DNA of 64,000 nucleotides from Candidatus Gottesmanbacteria bacterium RIFCSPLOWO2_01_FULL_43_11b (GTDB lineage: Bacteria > Patescibacteriota > Microgenomatia > UBA10105 > UBA927), in assembly GCA_001780985.1 (NCBI GenBank), contig MFJV01000001.1:913609-977608 (forward strand). The letters run 5' to 3'. Both the position numbers and the translations under genes were made by a program. The notes under the pieces are model-generated. The model was not told the DNA's origin and made no database searches. It worked only from the letters and a program-made list of their open reading frames with translations. Within the stretch, counting starts at the first letter, position 1. Every line of letters starts with the position of its first letter. Below, in pieces: positions 1,672 through 54,089 of the stretch.

Positions 1672-2646
1672 ATGAAGGTACTAATTACCGGTGGGGCGGG
1701 GTATATCGGGGCGATTACCAACGACTACCTAAAAAAACAAGACTACGAGACTGTGGTGTTTGACAGCCTCAAAAACGGGCACCGTGAGGCTATAGCAGGC
1801 ACAAAACTGGTCGTTGGTGATCTTACCATCAAAAGTGACATAGACGAGGTATTTAAGGCTGATACGTTTGATGCAGTTATCCATTTTGCAGCTTTAGCTC
1901 TGGCTCCGGAGTCAATGGAGAAGCCCTTTGAGTACTACCAAAATAATGTGTTGGGGAGCCTAAATCTTCTCGAATCCATGCGTAATGCAGGATGCAAGAA
2001 CCTGGTTTTTTCCTCAACCTGTGCTGTTTACGGCTATCCCAAGAAACTTCCGGTAACCGAGGATGAAAAAATAGCTCCGGAGAGTGTGTATGGGTCAAGC
2101 AAGCGCATTGTTGAGGAAATTATCGAGTGGTACGGACAAGTGTATGGGCTAAAATACATGAATCTTCGCTACTTTAACGCTGCAGGTGCTGCACTTGACG
2201 GCACACTCGGAGAAAATCACGCTGTTGAAACGCACATTATTCCAATACTTTTGGATGTCATCTCAGGCACGAGGAAAGTATTTGAACTATACGGTAAAGA
2301 TTATCCGACACCTGATGGCACGTGCATTCGCGACTATATTCATGTCGTTGATCTCGCACGAGCCCATGTTGCGGCACTGAAGGGTCAGTCGGGATCGGTT
2401 AATCTTGGTGTTGGCAAAGGGTATAGTAATCTTGAGGTTATCTCTGTGGTGGAAAAGGTCACCGGCAAAAAGGTTCCTGTTGAGGTAAAGTCACGTCGAC
2501 CGGGAGATCCGGCAAGTATTTATGCGGATAACACGAAAGCAAAGAAACTTCTCGGTTGGGAACCGAAACATTCTGATTTAGAAACCATTGTAGAGAGTGC
2601 GTGGAAGTATCATGAGAAGAGGATTCTCGATGAGAATAGGGATTGA
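1672..2646 (+). CDS. galE: UDP-glucose 4-epimerase
   Basis: N-terminal GGAGYIG Rossmann motif; short-chain dehydrogenase YxxxK context; length about 324 aa typical of GalE. Confidence 0.85.
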   Translation: MKVLITGGAGYIGAITNDYLKKQDYETVVFDSLKNGHREAIAGTKLVVGDLTIKSDIDEVFKADTFDAVIHFAALALAPESMEKPFEYYQNNVLGSLNLLESMRNAGCKNLVFSSTCAVYGYPKKLPVTEDEKIAPESVYGSSKRIVEEIIEWYGQVYGLKYMNLRYFNAAGAALDGTLGENHAVETHIIPILLDVISGTRKVFELYGKDYPTPDGTCIRDYIHVVDLARAHVAALKGQSGSVNLGVGKGYSNLEVISVVEKVTGKKVPVEVKSRRPGDPASIYADNTKAKKLLGWEPKHSDLETIVESAWKYHEKRILDENRD

Positions 2647-40843: not shown

Positions 40844-41889
40844 AAATACTTATTACCGGCGGCCATATTACCCCAGCGCTTGCTGTTGCGGAAGAAATAA
40901 GGGAGCGATACCCGGACTGGGAATTAGTGCTCGTGGGGCGCCGGTTTTCTCTGGAAGCGAATAAAATTCAATCAGAAGAGGAGCGGTTAGCAAAAAAATA
41001 CAACCTTGAATTTATCCCATTTAAAACAGGAAGATTCACCCGTGCATTTGCCCTCACAACACTTATCTCTTTATCTAATGTACCCGTCGGATTTATTAGC
41101 GCAATCAACATTGTTTCCTCAGTCCGCCCGAACCTCATTATTTCTTTTGGTGGTTACATAGCGCTTCCCGTCGTTATTGCCGGAAAACTCATGGGAATTC
41201 CGACTGTCACACATGAGCAGACGCGTAAACGCGGACTTTCGAACAGAATTATTGGTCTTTTTGCCCGTAAAGTTTGCGTGAGCTACCCTGATCAAAAAGG
41301 AGTCTATACAGGATTACCCATACGAAGAAGTATTTTTGAAAAATCGAAACCACCTGCAGGAGTTGATTCCAAGCGCCCGTTATTGTTTTTTTCCGGCGGT
41401 AGCACCGGATCGCAATCATTGAACACAATTTTTTTTGAATGTATTACTCTGCTAACCAAGCGATACATGGTCGTCCACCAAACGGGGAGAGCGTCAGAAT
41501 CAAAACAAATGGAGAACTACCAATCGTTTCCATACATAGATTTACCCGAGTATGCATGGATTTTACAAAATGCAAAACTCATTATCGGAAGAAGCGGAGC
41601 AAACACAGCAGGAGAAGTAGCGGCTCTTGGGAAAGTTGCACTCTGGATTCCGCTTCCGTGGTCAGGTGCGAATGAACAATACGAAAACGCTGCATTTCTT
41701 GTAAATAAAGGAACAAGCGAGCTCATACAACAAAAAAATCTTACCCAAGCCACTCTCATAAGTATGATTGAAAAAATGGTGAGTAATTATGAATCCTACA
41801 AAAACAATGCGGAAAAATACTCACGGGAGATTTCCCGGAACGCCGCCGGAAAGCTTGTTGACGAAATAGTAAAACTCCCGGAAGTATGA
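40840..41889 (+). CDS. murG: UDP-GlcNAc:lipid I GlcNAc transferase
   Basis: MKILITGGHITPALAV N-terminus (GT28); position in the dcw cluster. Confidence 0.8.
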   Translation: MKILITGGHITPALAVAEEIRERYPDWELVLVGRRFSLEANKIQSEEERLAKKYNLEFIPFKTGRFTRAFALTTLISLSNVPVGFISAINIVSSVRPNLIISFGGYIALPVVIAGKLMGIPTVTHEQTRKRGLSNRIIGLFARKVCVSYPDQKGVYTGLPIRRSIFEKSKPPAGVDSKRPLLFFSGGSTGSQSLNTIFFECITLLTKRYMVVHQTGRASESKQMENYQSFPYIDLPEYAWILQNAKLIIGRSGANTAGEVAALGKVALWIPLPWSGANEQYENAAFLVNKGTSELIQQKNLTQATLISMIEKMVSNYESYKNNAEKYSREISRNAAGKLVDEIVKLPEV

Positions 41890-50659: not shown

Positions 50660-50941
50660 ATGGCTCATATTAAAGCAGGCGGAACCACTCGAGCAAATAA
50701 AGATTCAGCCTCCAAGAGACTTGGAGTTAAAATTTATGGTGGACAACGCGCAATTGCTGGAAATATCATTGTTCGTCAAAAGGGAACAAAAGTATACCCG
50801 GGAGACGGGGTGAGTATTGGGAGAGATTTTACAATTTTTGCATTGACTTCTGGTTTAGTTGAATTTTTTACCAAAAGAGGGAAACAATACGTTTCGGTCC
50901 TGCCTGCCGGCAGGCAGGTCCTGCCCGCCAAGAGCCAATAA
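50660..50941 (+). CDS. rpmA: 50S ribosomal protein L27 with a 7-aa in-frame C-terminal insertion encoded by a palindromic repeat
   Basis: [17 protein letters not shown]-terminus; the C-terminus [16 protein letters not shown] contains the 21-nt repeat at 50896-50921. Confidence 0.85.
50899..50918. repeat. 20-nt perfect palindrome CCTGCCTGCCGGCAGGCAGG (copy 2, inside the rpmA 3' end)
   Basis: Identical to 21008-21027; flanked by CCTG direct repeats (tCCTG ... tCCTG). Confidence 0.8.
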
Positions 50942-50942
50942 C

Positions 50943-51752
50943 ATGGCCGACACCCAACAGGTTTTACATCTTGAGATTGATCTTGTTCAACCCAACCCAC
51001 TGCAGCCCCGTGGTTTGATTTCACCTGACTCCCTTGCAGAACTGGTCAACTCCATTAAAGAACACGGAATTATTGAGCCATTGGTTGTAGCTAAGACACC
51101 TGCTGGCTACCAAATTATTGCGGGGGAGAGACGGTGGCGGGCAAGTAAATTAGCAGGACTGTCAACCGTTCCCGTCATCCTTAAGGAAACATCAGCAAAA
51201 GGAATGCTCGAGATGGCATTGGTTGAAAACGTACAACGCGAGGATTTAAATCCCATTGACCGCGCGCAGGCATTTCAACGGTTAATTGAAGAATTTGGGT
51301 TGCCAGTTTCAGAGATTGCAAAACGCATTGGAAAAAGCGAATCGTATGTGAGCAACACAATGCGTCTTTTAGCCCTTCCTGATGCGATAAAAGACGGATT
51401 AATTTCAGGTTCTATTTCTGAAGGGCATGCGCGGGCAATTGCAGGCCTTGGTGATGTCAAACTCATGGTGGATGCGTATAAAACAATTCTTACGGAAAGC
51501 GCGTCTGTTCGTAGAGCAGAAGATTTAGCACGAAGACTCAAAGCGCAAATAAATAAAAAACCTGTCCATAAATTACAGCGAATTCACAGCGACGAGCTGG
51601 ATAACATGGCAAAGGGCATGGCGCAGGCAGTCAACGGACTCGTTAAAATTACCCAATCGAAAGTCGAAGCACGATTGGTCTTTGTCATCCGTGGCAACCT
51701 CGAATCAACAAGCAAAATCCTCAAGGATATAAATAAAAAACTCACCTCTTAA
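50943..51752 (+). CDS. parB: chromosome partitioning protein ParB/Spo0J
   Basis: IAGERRWRA ParB-box motif and HTH region; ATG at 50943. Confidence 0.85.
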   Translation: MADTQQVLHLEIDLVQPNPLQPRGLISPDSLAELVNSIKEHGIIEPLVVAKTPAGYQIIAGERRWRASKLAGLSTVPVILKETSAKGMLEMALVENVQREDLNPIDRAQAFQRLIEEFGLPVSEIAKRIGKSESYVSNTMRLLALPDAIKDGLISGSISEGHARAIAGLGDVKLMVDAYKTILTESASVRRAEDLARRLKAQINKKPVHKLQRIHSDELDNMAKGMAQAVNGLVKITQSKVEARLVFVIRGNLESTSKILKDINKKLTS

Positions 51753-52315
51753 GGGATCTCGTAGGAAGGCTGTGGGACAACGCCGAATTTAGAAAACGGC
51801 CAATAGCGAAGAAACGCTTTTCCGATAAAATCTTCTTTCGGAACCGTTCCAAATTCCCGTGAATCAGCACTATGCGGGCGATTGTCACCCATGACAAAAT
51901 ATTCTCCTTCGGGTACAACAATCTCTTGATCTTCGGTTAAATACGATCCGCCGAAAATCGTTATGTCTGGCGAGAGATACGGTTCCTCAACTTCACTGTC
52001 GTTGACATACATCGTATCGTTACGAAGCATCACCGTATCACCGGGAAGACCGATAATTCTTTTAATGTAATCAATTTCAGGATTACCGGGGGATTTAAAA
52101 ATTACAACTTCACCACGTTTGGGATCTTTAATTTTATAAAGAATTTTGTTGGTGAGGATGTATTCCCCGTTGATAAACGACGGCTCCATGCTTGCCCCTT
52201 TAATTTCCTGTGGCGACATAACGAAGAGGTAAATCATGACCATAATTGCCATGACAACAACGATAGATTGGAGAAAATCAAAAATGGCCACCACGGCCCG
52301 CTTAATAAAATCCAT
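51749..52315 (-). CDS. lepB: signal peptidase I
   Basis: N-terminal TM, GASMEPS serine box, KRIIGLPGD and GDNR boxes. Confidence 0.85.
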   Translation of the reverse strand: MDFIKRAVVAIFDFLQSIVVVMAIMVMIYLFVMSPQEIKGASMEPSFINGEYILTNKILYKIKDPKRGEVVIFKSPGNPEIDYIKRIIGLPGDTVMLRNDTMYVNDSEVEEPYLSPDITIFGGSYLTEDQEIVVPEGEYFVMGDNRPHSADSREFGTVPKEDFIGKAFLRYWPFSKFGVVPQPSYEIP

Positions 52316-52360
52316 AATTTTCCTACGTTTAGTCTAAGTGATATAATAACCCTCGTCAAG

Positions 52361-52381
52361 GACGACTAGCTCAGCTGGTTT
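52361..52381 (+). other. tRNA 5'-fragment-like sequence (acceptor plus D-arm only)
   Basis: GGACGACTAGCTCAGCTGGTT matches the 5' acceptor/D-arm of a tRNA but no anticodon or T arm follows. Confidence 0.25.
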
Positions 52382-52426
52382 ACCCGATCAAGTTTTTTTG
52401 CAAAGCAAAAAATTTGTGCGGGTGAA

Positions 52427-52439
52427 GAGCGTTTCATTG
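52427..52439 (+). repeat. 13-nt direct repeat GAGCGTTTCATTG (left copy)
   Basis: Repeated at 52764-52776; together they bracket the GIY-YIG gene and tRNA-Val. Confidence 0.6.
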
Positions 52440-52705
52440 TGTATTACGTGTATATTTTAAAAAGTTTGACTGACAAGAAATTGTATTCCGGATATACTGA
52501 TAATTTGAAAAGGCGTTTTCGAGAGCATAATAATGGAGAAGTGGAGAGTACGAGGAATAGAAAACCTTTTACGTTGGTATATTACGAAGCGTATCAGCAT
52601 CAACAAGATGCTACCGCAAGAGAAAAGTTCTTTAAAACACAGTGGGGAAGGAATTATTTGAAAAAGGTTTTAAAAAATTATTGGGCGCGCATAGCTCAGG
52701 GGTAG
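52439..52705 (+). CDS. GIY-YIG family nuclease (small stand-alone)
   Basis: YVYILKS...KLYSGYTDNLKRRFREHN is the classic GIY-YIG motif; GTG start; its 3' end overlaps tRNA-Val by 21 nt. Confidence 0.75.
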   Translation: MYYVYILKSLTDKKLYSGYTDNLKRRFREHNNGEVESTRNRKPFTLVYYEAYQHQQDATAREKFFKTQWGRNYLKKVLKNYWARIAQG

Positions 52706-52756
52706 AGCGCTTCGTTGACATCGAAGAGGTCTATGGTTCAAATCCATATGCGCGCA
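52685..52756 (+). tRNA. tRNA-Val (anticodon GAC)
   Basis: Hand-folded cloverleaf: acceptor GCGCGCA/TGCGCGC, D-arm GCTC-AGGGGTA-GAGC, anticodon stem CTTCG/CGAAG with loop TTGACAT, T-arm TATGG-TTCAAAT-CCATA, discriminator A; no encoded CCA. Confidence 0.8.
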
Positions 52757-52763
52757 CAAGGAT

Positions 52764-52776
52764 GAGCGTTTCATTG
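52764..52776 (+). repeat. 13-nt direct repeat GAGCGTTTCATTG (right copy)
   Basis: Identical to 52427-52439; a related TGCGCGGGTTGA motif downstream mirrors TGCGGGTGAA upstream of the left copy. Confidence 0.6.
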
Positions 52777-52832
52777 ACCCGAACAAATTTTCTCAAGAAA
52801 ACTTGCGCGGGTTGACATTGAAAAGGGTCCAC

Positions 52833-54089
52833 ATGAATAAAAATCTTCGCGCATGGCTCCTCTACGATGCCGGTAATTCTTTCATCGTTTCCGCGACAGG
52901 AGGGCTATTCCTGGCACAATGGTTCGTGTTAGACAAAGGGATTCCTGAAGCCTGGTATGGATTTGCGTTTTCAGCCGCCACAGTTTTTGTATTGCTTTCC
53001 TCTCCCATCATTGGTGCTTGGTCGGATACACTCGGCTACAGAAAACCATTTATCAATTTTTTTACCATCGCACTTCTTCTTGCGGGATCGTTGATGATTT
53101 TCACAACGAATGTAGCTGGTTTTGGAAATCTGTTTCCACTTCTCACACTCTTACTTTTCTTTTTTGTGCAATACACCTACCAGTTAAGTTTTTTATTTTT
53201 CAATACATTGTTAGAAAAACTCTCCTCGAAACAAACTCTTGCTCGTATATCAGGATTAAGCACTCTTTATAATCAAATAGCCTACGTATTAGCGAATGCA
53301 ATTCTTTTACTGTTTGCCATGGGCAAAATAACGCTCATTGGAATTCCCGGACGTTCTCAAGTATTTTTGCCGGCAGTAGTAATCTGCACAATTTTTTCTT
53401 TACCGCTTATTCTGCAATTTCAGGAGAAACGTACGGTGAAAGAGGGAAGTACAAGACAAACGAGTGCGCTTGCAGAAACAATCGGTGGAATTCGAATGCT
53501 TTTTAAGAAAGAAAGAAATGTTGGAGTGTTTCTTTTGGGATTTAGTTTTGTATCTGACGCGCTTCTCACAATCTCGCTGTATTTTGCTCTCGTCATGAAT
53601 GAACTCTACCGCATGAGCGACGTGCAAAAACTTATCGCCATCTCTTTAATGTATGTCTGTGCGGGATTAATTGGCGCGCTGCTTGGAAAAGTCGCTGGTC
53701 GGTTTGGGATGAAGCGAAGCTTACTTTTTATGGCGTTGATGCTTACTGGATCCTTTACCGTTGCACTTTTGGGGTCAAACTTTTCCGTGTTGCTGGTAAC
53801 CTTAATTTTTGCAGGGATAGGATGGGGCGGATTTTACAGTCTGACGAGAGCGATGCTCATTCGAATTGCGCCCCCTGCGCGATTGGGAGAATACTTTGGG
53901 TTTTACTCAACATTTGAGCGCTTCGCATCAATTATTGGACCGACGATTTGGGGAGTGATCGTCACATGGCTTGCAGTAACTGGAGGATTCAGATATAGAA
54001 TTGCAGGGATTACAGAGGTAGTACTTATGGTCATAGGAATAGTTTTATTGTCGAAAGTAAAAGTAAGTAGATCCTATGGCAAACTATAA
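52833..54089 (+). CDS. MFS transporter
   Basis: 12 predicted TM helices in a 6+6 arrangement; ATG at 52833. Confidence 0.7.
   Translation: MNKNLRAWLLYDAGNSFIVSATGGLFLAQWFVLDKGIPEAWYGFAFSAATVFVLLSSPIIGAWSDTLGYRKPFINFFTIALLLAGSLMIFTTNVAGFGNLFPLLTLLLFFFVQYTYQLSFLFFNTLLEKLSSKQTLARISGLSTLYNQIAYVLANAILLLFAMGKITLIGIPGRSQVFLPAVVICTIFSLPLILQFQEKRTVKEGSTRQTSALAETIGGIRMLFKKERNVGVFLLGFSFVSDALLTISLYFALVMNELYRMSDVQKLIAISLMYVCAGLIGALLGKVAGRFGMKRSLLFMALMLTGSFTVALLGSNFSVLLVTLIFAGIGWGGFYSLTRAMLIRIAPPARLGEYFGFYSTFERFASIIGPTIWGVIVTWLAVTGGFRYRIAGITEVVLMVIGIVLLSKVKVSRSYGKL

Follow-up and report, generated by a model that had tools for sequence, protein, structure and literature searches.

tRNA genes are classic landing sites of mobile DNA, and among the closest described systems to the one reported here is SegB of phage T4, a GIY-YIG homing endonuclease encoded in a tRNA cluster, which recognises a conserved tRNA motif and mobilises the neighbouring tRNA genes (PMC2330249). 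Here we analyse a cassette in which the gene of a minimal GIY-YIG nuclease runs directly into a tRNA-Val(GAC) gene, and which lies between the pieces of an older, broken tRNA-Val gene. The cassette was found in 64,000 nt of DNA (contig MFJV01000001.1, positions 913,609 to 977,608; this whole stretch is hereafter called the window) from Candidatus Gottesmanbacteria bacterium RIFCSPLOWO2_01_FULL_43_11b, a member of the candidate phyla radiation (CPR, Patescibacteria).

The likeness to SegB lies in a GIY-YIG gene placed among tRNA genes without an intron. The target of SegB is a tRNA-gene motif, and its homing replaces the tRNA region of the recipient (PMC2330249), a parallel to the replacement tRNA-Val and the broken resident tRNA-Val of the window. 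SegB differs by its C-terminal DNA-binding part (NUMOD3), its phage-borne location and its T-loop motif target (PMC2330249), whereas the window protein consists of the catalytic domain only, is chromosomal in CPR bacteria and is fused to a tRNA with the stop codon inside, and its cassette has a conserved palindrome, a duplicated tRNA 5′ part and an ancient fixation at one locus. In size and single-domain organisation the protein resembles the UPF0213/COG2827 proteins (1ZG2, BH0048; 1YWL, EF2693; Escherichia coli YhbQ; Bacillus subtilis YazA), on whose function almost nothing was found in the literature. To our knowledge, these are single housekeeping-type genes of poorly defined function, with no reported link to tRNA genes or palindromes.

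Phages and integrative and conjugative elements that target tRNA genes likewise insert within a tRNA gene, produce a tRNA-derived direct repeat and restore a functional tRNA; the window differs from these in having no integrase, an insert of ∼340 bp, a duplication of the 5′/middle part of the tRNA instead of its 3′ end, and a whole new tRNA. Small palindromic elements (those like miniature inverted-repeat transposable elements, and the Rickettsia palindromic elements) and the structure-recognised attC sites and IS200/IS605 hairpins share with it imperfect palindromes of 36-115 nt whose base is conserved and whose tip varies, insertion in structured-RNA genes and conserved unpaired bases, whereas the palindromes of the window are confined to the vicinity of one nuclease family and to tRNA loops, with no DDE, HUH or tyrosine enzyme. 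The group I introns of Patescibacteria tRNAs occur in the same organisms and target the tRNA anticodon loop (PMC13011429), whereas the window has no ribozyme and its interrupted tRNA is not restorable; most of those introns are without endonuclease genes, and ‘GIY-YIG’, ‘hairpin’ and ‘palindrom’ do not occur in the text of that study (PMC13011429). No published description of the nested GIY-YIG/tRNA arrangement was found in the literature covered, which excluded most subscription journals, and a chromosomal, CPR-wide family of minimal tRNA-fused GIY-YIG genes appears to be undescribed.

RESULTS

Pieces of an ancestral tRNA-Val gene surround the nuclease-tRNA block

Only pieces survive of a second, ancestral tRNA-Val(GAC) gene, which two palindromes and the block of nuclease open reading frame (ORF) and tRNA have broken up (Table 1). 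The 5′ fragment of this gene comprises the acceptor 5′ strand GGACGAC, U8 A9, the D-stem 5′ strand GCTC and the D loop AGCTGGTTT, and the stretch GGACGACTAGCTCAGCTGGTT at 52360-52380 is unique in the window, with 0 chance matches expected. An initial annotation of the window had recorded this fragment as a tRNA start with nothing downstream; the fragment stands, unique and aligned to tRNA-Val, but the tRNA does resume after the 42-nt palindrome A, with GAA, the D-stem 3′ strand GAGC, G26, the anticodon-stem 5′ strand TTTCA and U32 U33 G34, the last G being the first base of the GTG start codon. Beyond palindrome B, the gene goes on with TG (positions 33-34 repeated), ACAT (35-38), the anticodon-stem 3′ strand TGAAA, AGG and GTCC-A, of which TGAAA pairs with TTTCA (52432-36), GTCC complements GGAC (52360-63) and A is the discriminator. 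What is missing is the T arm and the greater part of the 3′ acceptor strand. An in-silico join of the pieces can be aligned with tRNA-Val from position 1 to ∼47. The remnant at the orthologous locus L003 ends with the identical GGTCCACA, and the intact tRNA-Val genes of L008 and L011 have the same acceptor, GGACGAC...GTCGTCCA.

The 13-mer GAGCGTTTCATTG, whose copies at 52427 and 52764 had been reported to bracket the nuclease and tRNA genes, consists of the D-stem 3′ strand, G26, the anticodon-stem 5′ strand and U32 U33 G34, i.e. tRNA positions 22-34, and its copy 1 (52427-52439) lies within the continuation of the broken gene. Both copies are exact and no third occurs in the 64 kb; with up to two mismatches, 5 matches were obtained versus 2.0 expected, one of which (52705) is the homologous stretch of the intact tRNA. 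Likewise, the repeat finder placed GAGCGCTTCGTTG of the intact tRNA (52705) in the 13-mer family and matched 52811-52826 (GTTGACATTGAAAAGG) with the tRNA anticodon loop and 3′ stem. The 13-mers are thus pieces of the disrupted tRNA in only two exact copies; the initial alternative reading as promoter or operator elements does not hold, nor are they proven integration duplications.

The element TGATATAAT lies 12 nt before the tRNA-like 5′ end and presumably represents the promoter of the old tRNA gene, from which leader, ORF and tRNA would now be transcribed. A −35/−10 consensus scan did not call it, so that the promoter assignment rests on cross-genome conservation: 18 of 20 related loci have TAnAAT, often TGnTAnAAT, ahead of the leader. 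The GAAGAG before the ORF is a possible ribosome-binding site.

Table 1. Features of the nuclease-tRNA cassette and of the broken tRNA-Val gene around it, in window coordinates
Feature	Position	Strand	Basis or remark
Extended −10 promoter-like element TGATATAAT	52339..52347	+	Sequence; TAnAAT in relatives
Broken tRNA-Val, 5′ fragment GGACGAC-TA-GCTC-AGCTGGTTT	52360..52381	+	Alignment to tRNA-Val 1-20
Palindrome A, 42 nt, in D loop at position 20/21	52382..52423	.	Fold −21.4 kcal/mol, z = −6.3
Broken tRNA-Val, continuation GAA-GAGC-G-TTTCA-TTG	52424..52439	+	Sequence; repeat families
GIY-YIG nuclease gene, stand-alone, UPF0213-like, 88 aa	52439..52705	+	GTG start; Pfam match; structures; dN/dS
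Intact tRNA-Val(GAC)	52685-52757	+	ARAGORN; Rfam tRNA 70.2 bits
Spacer, 6 nt, between intact tRNA-Val and 13-mer copy 2	52758-52763		
13-mer copy 2, GAGC-G-TTTCA-TTG, broken tRNA-Val positions 22-34 again	52764..52776	+	Repeat search
Palindrome B, in anticodon loop after G34	52777..52812	.	Fold −15.2 kcal/mol, z = −4.3
Broken tRNA-Val, 3′ remainder TG-ACAT-TGAAA-AGG-GTCC-A	52813..52831	+	Repeat family, in-silico joining, sequence
MFS gene ATG	52833		Follows broken tRNA remainder

The intact tRNA-Val, with the acceptor GCGCGCA/TGCGCGC and no encoded CCA, has its first base directly after the conserved Trp codon of the ORF. ARAGORN and Rfam confirmed the 21-nt overlap of the two genes that had been proposed, and placed the tRNA end at 52757, essentially as first given (52756). 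The ORF has no stop codon of its own: since it ends at 52705 and the tRNA starts at 52685, 21 nt of the ORF lie inside the tRNA, the stop TAG (52703-52705) is part of the D arm and the last 6 residues of the protein are translated tRNA. We infer that this gene is the replacement for the broken tRNA-Val. The stretch CGCGCATGGCTC in the MFS ORF (52848-52859) resembles the 5′ end of the intact tRNA, CGCGCATAGCTC, at 11 of 12 positions, probably by chance. A long-range helix between the leader acceptor strand and the 3′ strand of the downstream tRNA was rejected as a general feature, as GGACGAC and TGCGCGC of the window cannot pair; such a helix is possible in L008, L012, L016, L018, L025 and L036, where the sequences are identical.

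The ORF encodes a minimal GIY-YIG nuclease of a large family

As initially annotated, an 88-aa GIY-YIG ORF starts with the GTG at 52439. Its product matched Pfam PF01541 over residues 1-71 (E = 1.7e-16, 60.7 bits, cut-off 22.6), and no separate DNA-binding domain of the homing-endonuclease kind is present in the 88 residues. The nearest solved structures were the UPF0213 proteins 1ZG2 and 1YWL (both E = 5e-9, 1YWL near full length), SLX1 being a weak match, and with a single domain, a length within ∼85-110 aa and its likeness to BH0048/EF2693, the protein belongs with UPF0213/COG2827. The starts of the homologues coincide at M-(Y/F)-Y-V-Y-I-L, and Y5 (of YVY), Y16-G18-Y19, R26, H30-N31 and E50 are invariant in 21 homologues; by comparison with published GIY-YIG structures we take these residues to be catalytic. 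The conserved protein end is ...LKNYW, whose TGG codon often provides G1 G2 of the tRNA, and the variable tails of homologues (SSAG, SSVG, AQG) are translated tRNA 5′ ends.

By a profile search of 1.84 billion cluster representatives at 50% identity, 3,956 representatives were obtained at E up to 1e-10, with lengths mostly of 84-125 aa. Homologues named Roizman-, Gottesman-, Levy-, Woese- and Daviesbacteria are Microgenomates within the CPR, and the exact 88-aa protein is also encoded on a 180-kb metagenome scaffold with identical neighbours (L21, L27, ParB, LepB, MFS and HAD). Many metagenome-assembled genomes titled ‘uncultured Gammaproteobacteria bacterium’ (L002, L004, L005, L009, L010 and others) carry Microgenomates-typical ParB-lepB-cassette loci, and their taxonomic labels look wrong. 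Early stops shorten 2 of ∼90 family ORFs (L031:2501-2548 and L080:1030-1128), which are rare decayed copies, the others being intact.

The window has a single GIY-YIG copy. PADLOC gave no defence-system match and PHROGs and NCBIfam sub-threshold matches only, and a scan of viral contigs with the family profile returned no relatives, so that no phage vector is known. None of the known transposase classes (DDE, HUH, serine, tyrosine, Cas1) is represented in the cassette, whose sole ORF is the GIY-YIG gene, and no integrase stands beside the tRNA-derived repeat, the 337-bp insert holding nuclease and tRNA and the neighbours being LepB, ParB, MFS and HAD. An Rfam search of 51800-53300 (E up to 10) gave the tRNA and chance microRNA-type matches on the palindromes, with no ribozyme, riboswitch, intron or known small RNA.

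The palindromes form one family with an obligatory mismatch

The stem of palindrome A reaches 52379-52426 via TTT/GAA, with a 2 × 2 mismatch (AT/TG) 5 bp from the base, and that of palindrome B reaches 52774-52815, with a 2 × 2 mismatch (AA/CG). By their z-scores both fold far better than shuffled sequence; they are homologous, and the window has no others. The motifs GCGGGTGAA and GCGCGGGTTGA, which had been listed only as related sequences beside the 13-mers, are present and prove to be the right arms of these palindromes, overlooked as such. Each palindrome of the window holds both arms, and A and B flank the ORF and tRNA as direct copies, not as single inverted ends.

Palindrome statistics were obtained from 38 unique copies in 27 loci, arms of the type GCGCGGGT included. 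The consensus in relatives is ACCCG-NN-CAAATTT...AAATTTG-NN-CGGGT, in which the base ACCCG/CGGGT is paired in 38/38 copies, positions 9-10 are unpaired in ∼85% of copies and pairing resumes at positions 11-18. The NN dinucleotides are AA, TT or CG, and complementary combinations occur in 0/27 cases versus 28% expected from the marginals (P ∼1e-4 if independent). The distal stem varies in sequence and length (tip 3 to ∼70 nt) yet stays complementary, i.e. it covaries. A conserved stem, an obligatory mismatch, a second stem and a variable tip make up the organisation of attC sites and IS200/IS605 ends, a likeness that we take as a lead only; the attC core GTTRRRY/RYYYAAC is only approximated, by GCCTAAA/TTTAGGC in the sister clade described below, and an integron integrase was sought among the cassette neighbours only.

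The palindromes are the most conserved non-coding feature of the family, and throughout ∼460 kb of related sequence examined they occur almost only beside GIY-YIG genes. The family and position of palindrome A are common to ∼20 related loci, and the placement of palindrome B recurs in L003 and L004. In ∼12 loci, the window among them, palindromes stand on both sides of ORF and tRNA, and the two copies are often identical within a locus (L019, L031). Palindromes were also seen nested, one copy inside the mismatch region of another (L005:2768-2819), and back to back, two copies in one D loop (L006:2881-2969 and L017:1661-1740). Other small hairpins lie in the T loop of tRNA remnants downstream of the intact tRNA (e.g. 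GGTT[TCCCGCTTAAGCGGGA]TCC; L003:∼1530-1560, L017, L020, L023 and L015), so that in some remnants two or more of the three loops are interrupted.

Relatives are linked to tRNA genes, which often supply the stop codon and the leader

For comparison, 80 genome loci encoding relatives were collected, with the window as the 81st. In 46 of the 81 loci, a tRNA on the same strand has its start in the interval from 23 nt upstream to 26 nt downstream of the ORF stop, and 10 further loci have a tRNA within 110 nt, usually with a partial tRNA copy between, giving 56/81 in total; by our own estimate, the chance expectation for such proximity is ∼0.1%. The closest relatives pair with tRNA-Val (GAC, CAC, TAC), and others with tRNAs for Ile, Asp, Thr, Lys, Asn, Phe, Met, Cys and Glu. 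The stop codon is provided by the tRNA in 25 related loci, or 26 with the window, being U8-A9-G10 in 19 and the TAG at the D-loop end in 6 and in the window.

About 20 Microgenomates-type loci have one common upstream layout, namely the TAnAAT element, a tRNA-like 5′ strand, TAGCTCAG(T)TGGTTT, the palindrome, (G/A/T)AAGAGCG with a few anticodon-stem bases, and the start codon, which lies 11-28 nt after the palindrome in most of them; the sequence GAAGAGCG between palindrome and ORF is kept in ∼20 genomes. For Val, Ile, Asp and Thr, leader and downstream tRNA agree in type: Ile leaders have an unusual GTTC/GAAC D stem, and Asp and Thr leaders have specific acceptors. In the Parcubacteria-type clade (L042, L043, L047, L053, L065, L067, L071, L074 and L079), leader and tRNA types match for Thr, Asn, Lys and Phe, and a distinct, GC-rich palindrome, CCCGCCCG...CGGGCGGG, lies ∼110 nt upstream of each ORF, at variable positions 7-21 within a stretch that exactly repeats the initial 14-29 nt of the adjacent tRNA.

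A 3′ remnant of the host tRNA lies beyond the intact tRNA in ∼12 loci, often together with a second, sometimes identical, palindrome-bearing D-arm copy. It had also been asked whether other GIY-YIG copies sit near tRNAs with the same 13-mer: the window has only the one copy, and across genomes it is the palindrome and D arm that recur, not the 13-mer itself. Several further arrangements were noted. The motif GCAGGCGGGTCGAA stands directly before 3′-half tRNA remnants in L006 (upstream of the ORF), L020 and L083 (reverse complement, ∼2125-2140), and L083 and L006 each have an intact tRNA enclosed by the two halves, 5′ and 3′, of another one, without an ORF there. Two tandem GIY-YIG ORFs lie within ∼300-500 nt in 8 loci (L043, L045, L055, L057, L060, L063, L066 and L076). 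The ORFs of Bacteroidota/Ignavibacteria-type loci (L046, L054, L058, L066 and L076) are near tRNA-Gly/tRNA-Cys, between both in L054 and L076, and so the tRNA link is not confined to the CPR. In L039 (2301-2444), a head-to-head pair of tRNA-Gly(CCC) genes (2301-2372, plus strand; 2373-2444, minus strand) forms a 144-nt inverted duplication just upstream of the GIY-YIG ORF.

Discrete sister units and repeat amplification point to mobility

In a neighbour-joining tree of the family, built on a short alignment and of low support, the partners Ile (three times), Asp, Thr and Lys are nested in the Val-linked clade. The members of a sister clade are discrete units of 278-296 bp, CCCGCC(T/C)AA...ORF...TTAGGCGGG, with 19-nt inverted arms (CCCGCCTAAATTTTTGCAC / GTGCAAAAATTTAGGCGGG) and the stop codon in the right arm (L029:2174-2469, L032:2489-2766, L033:974-1266, L034:2471-2760 and L038:2470-2763). 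They are 63-78% identical to one another in unrelated flanks, and TATG comes after each, leading into a host ORF that differs from unit to unit (e.g. ParA in L032, or a membrane protein), with ‘ATG’ duplicated on the left.

Locus L010 reads ORF...NYW-tRNA[1-20]-palindrome-GAAGAGCG-(last ∼15 nt of ORF)-tRNA[1-76]. Its repeating unit of palindrome, tRNA positions 21-26, ORF and tRNA positions 1-20 shows amplification between repeats. The direct duplications amount to 13 nt in the window (tRNA 22-34) and, in relatives, to 14-38 nt of the tRNA 5′ part or to ‘ATG’, a variation in length that agrees with recombination no less than with staggered cutting.

The cassette is old and kept by selection at the ParB-lepB locus

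The order ParB-lepB(-)-cassette is shared by at least 10 genomes, and lepB-cassette by 11-12. Across the syntenic loci the identities are 35-68% for LepB, 54-85% for ParB (with one weak outlier) and 56-76% for the GIY-YIG protein. Compared with the syntenic orthologues L003 and L012, the window ORF has proportions of synonymous differences (pS) of 0.71-0.81, i.e. saturated, and of nonsynonymous differences (pN) of 0.06-0.14; the ratio of nonsynonymous to synonymous rates (dN/dS) is 0.03-0.09 where computable, which makes the ORF a working gene. Given the saturated synonymous sites, the conservation of the D arm, the palindrome base and GAAGAGCG is not neutral, and these are either functional or continually renewed by gene conversion. 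The cassette at this locus is thus old and kept by selection, not a recent insertion. In L003 and L010, ParB is encoded on the opposite strand, downstream of the cassette, whereas in the window (50859-52315) it precedes lepB, so that the surroundings of the lepB-cassette segment have been rearranged.

Comparison of the locus in relatives, as initially proposed, revealed orthologous loci without the ORF. L086 is a clean empty site with lepB, promoter and tRNA-Val only, and the ORF is also absent from the orthologous locus in L103 and L112, at comparable distance. Neither L082 nor L083 has an ORF; in L082 the tRNA is immediately preceded by a different palindrome, which ends in ...AAGAGC, and in L083 a 5′ half-remnant precedes the intact tRNA and 3′ half-remnants follow it. 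The ORF is thus polymorphic for presence and absence at the ParB-lepB-tRNA-Val locus, as seen at deep divergence only, not among close strains. The mobile or homing-type cassette that was first suggested for this tRNA locus therefore holds in part: the block lies inside an older tRNA-Val with flanking remnants, the family is tied to tRNAs and discrete sister units stand at unrelated sites, but the insertion is ancient here and under purifying selection.

DISCUSSION

A proposed selfish element that replaces the tRNA it invades

With roughly even confidence, we read the cassette as an old, selection-maintained homing or transposon-like selfish GIY-YIG element that invades tRNA genes and supplies a replacement, by a mechanism that we infer from the arrangement of the locus. 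The window cassette would be one of a large CPR family of minimal selfish GIY-YIG cassettes lying immediately 5′ of a host gene, usually a tRNA, and carrying or regenerating the tRNA that they disrupt. The palindrome, which interrupts the old tRNA copy, would be the element's paired terminal repeat or recognition site, probably acting as folded or cruciform DNA.

The ORF begins exactly at the anticodon-loop break, with no promoter-sized gap before the ORF or before the tRNA. One precursor RNA comprising leader, nuclease mRNA and tRNA would be made from the old tRNA promoter, and RNase P, by cutting at tRNA +1, would separate the nuclease mRNA from its final codons and its stop, so that only the unprocessed precursor would give the full-length nuclease; full-length translation and tRNA maturation would then compete, and nuclease expression would stay low. 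By analogy with T4 SegB, the nuclease may break tRNA-gene DNA in the 5′ half, whereupon repair from a cassette-bearing copy, with the near-universal D arm as homology, would copy in the ORF and the replacement tRNA. The palindrome may serve to mark or disable the old tRNA copy, and unequal crossover between the tRNA-derived repeats would yield the extra partial copies.

Several points weigh against this selfish reading. Characterised homing endonucleases recognise their targets via an added DNA-binding domain; the 88-aa protein is a catalytic domain only, and how it would find its target bare is not explained by the model, nor does the model give a reason why the intact tRNA, with its D arm uninterrupted, escapes cleavage. 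The palindrome stands upstream of the ORF instead of bracketing it, and its derivation from the inverted-end form is unaccounted for. Outside the fixed positions of the palindrome stem, G.T and A.C mismatches are of similar frequency (∼14 versus 9), which gives no RNA-specific signature and leaves action as RNA or as DNA unsettled. There are no viral relatives and only the one copy in the 64-kb window. Orthologues with ParB identity of at least 79% all carry the cassette, L082 (ParB 76%) being without the ORF, and no close relative is empty. The nuclease is better conserved than LepB in deep synteny, which fits a domesticated gene at least equally.

A domesticated gene and other explanations

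Domestication is accordingly the strongest rival, because of the synteny and purifying selection at the locus, and we regard it as possible though rather unlikely. The ORF would be a former insertion that is now a fixed, beneficial part of the tRNA-Val operon, with a role of the nuclease in, e.g., DNA repair or structure-specific cleavage, like UPF0213/SLX1-type enzymes; the leader would be a regulatory 5′ untranslated region or operator, and hitch-hiking on an essential tRNA promoter together with the tRNA overlap would tune expression. It would account for a nuclease more conserved than LepB, for low dN/dS and a leader motif still conserved at saturated dS, for nearly all ORFs being intact and for the single copy in the window, and it agrees with the housekeeping-type UPF0213 and SLX1 as nearest structures and with the lack of PADLOC or viral matches. 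It is hard to reconcile with the equally distant lineages L086, L103 and L112, which have no ORF at the locus, with the switching of partner tRNAs within a clade, with tandem copies and multiple partial tRNA copies, and with sister elements that have defined inverted ends at unrelated genes; moreover, a merely regulatory leader need not copy the local tRNA type each time.

A bolder form of the selfish reading, which as a whole we consider doubtful, takes the 88-aa GIY-YIG protein and the ∼20-bp imperfect palindromic arms as an autonomous mobile element of ∼0.3 kb, representing a new class of GIY-YIG-only DNA transposons. Its own ends would be recognised as a hairpin or cruciform with an obligatory 2-nt mismatch, insertion would occur at the 5′ edges of genes, above all in tRNA loops, with the tRNA regenerated or replaced, and the stop codon inside the tRNA would gate nuclease synthesis through RNase P processing.

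It is improbable that the palindromes are instead structure-recognised recombination sites, of the attC or IS200/IS605 kind, for a recombinase encoded elsewhere, with ORF and tRNA as the cassette between them and GIY-YIG as cargo or accessory. The hairpin anatomy, i.e. a conserved base of 5-8 bp, an obligatory 2-nt unpaired spacer, a second stem and a tip of 3 to ∼70 nt, would suit such sites, as would the palindromes on each side of ORF and tRNA in ∼12 loci, whose copies are often identical within a locus. Opposed to this are the near-confinement of the palindrome to GIY-YIG gene neighbourhoods and the arms of the sister clade, which tightly bracket the GIY-YIG ORF alone, as expected for the element's own enzyme; no recombinase is encoded in or beside the cassette, the rest of the window not having been searched for one.

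A common role of the repeats as promoters or operators of two neighbouring transcription units is very unlikely: nothing specific speaks for it beyond the position of the 13-mer just before the ORF and again before the MFS gene, and against it the 13-mer occurs nowhere else in the 64 kb, is homologous to tRNA-Val 22-34, including the intact copy at 52705, and corresponds in relatives to a stretch that tracks the local tRNA sequence instead of a fixed motif. Least probable of all is a functional intron-containing or split tRNA, with the palindromes and the ORF/tRNA block as introns (group I or archaeal bulge-helix-bulge), since insertions in the D and anticodon loops as in some archaeal tRNA introns, and the commonness of group I introns in Patescibacteria tRNAs (PMC13011429), are set against joined pieces without a T arm and with a 3′ acceptor strand of only 4 nt, and against remnants elsewhere without the 5′ acceptor strand or with broken T arms; the sequence of the absent 3′ acceptor strand, GTCGTCC, is present only at 41470 and 50605, far from the locus.

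Implications

If the selfish reading is true, the cassette illustrates a way for an element to enter an essential single-copy RNA gene and leave the host alive, namely by bringing a replacement along. The same reading would account for the palindromes and the tRNA debris by which the annotation of tRNAs in these genomes is misled, would give a role to a large family of ∼4,000 clusters at 50% identity, and would offer biochemistry a very small pair of nuclease and site. Should the gene have been domesticated, a protein gene ending inside a tRNA would still be an unusual operon design. If it is a GIY-YIG transposon, the cassette would be about the smallest autonomous mobile element known, and the widespread UPF0213-like proteins of the CPR would have a function.

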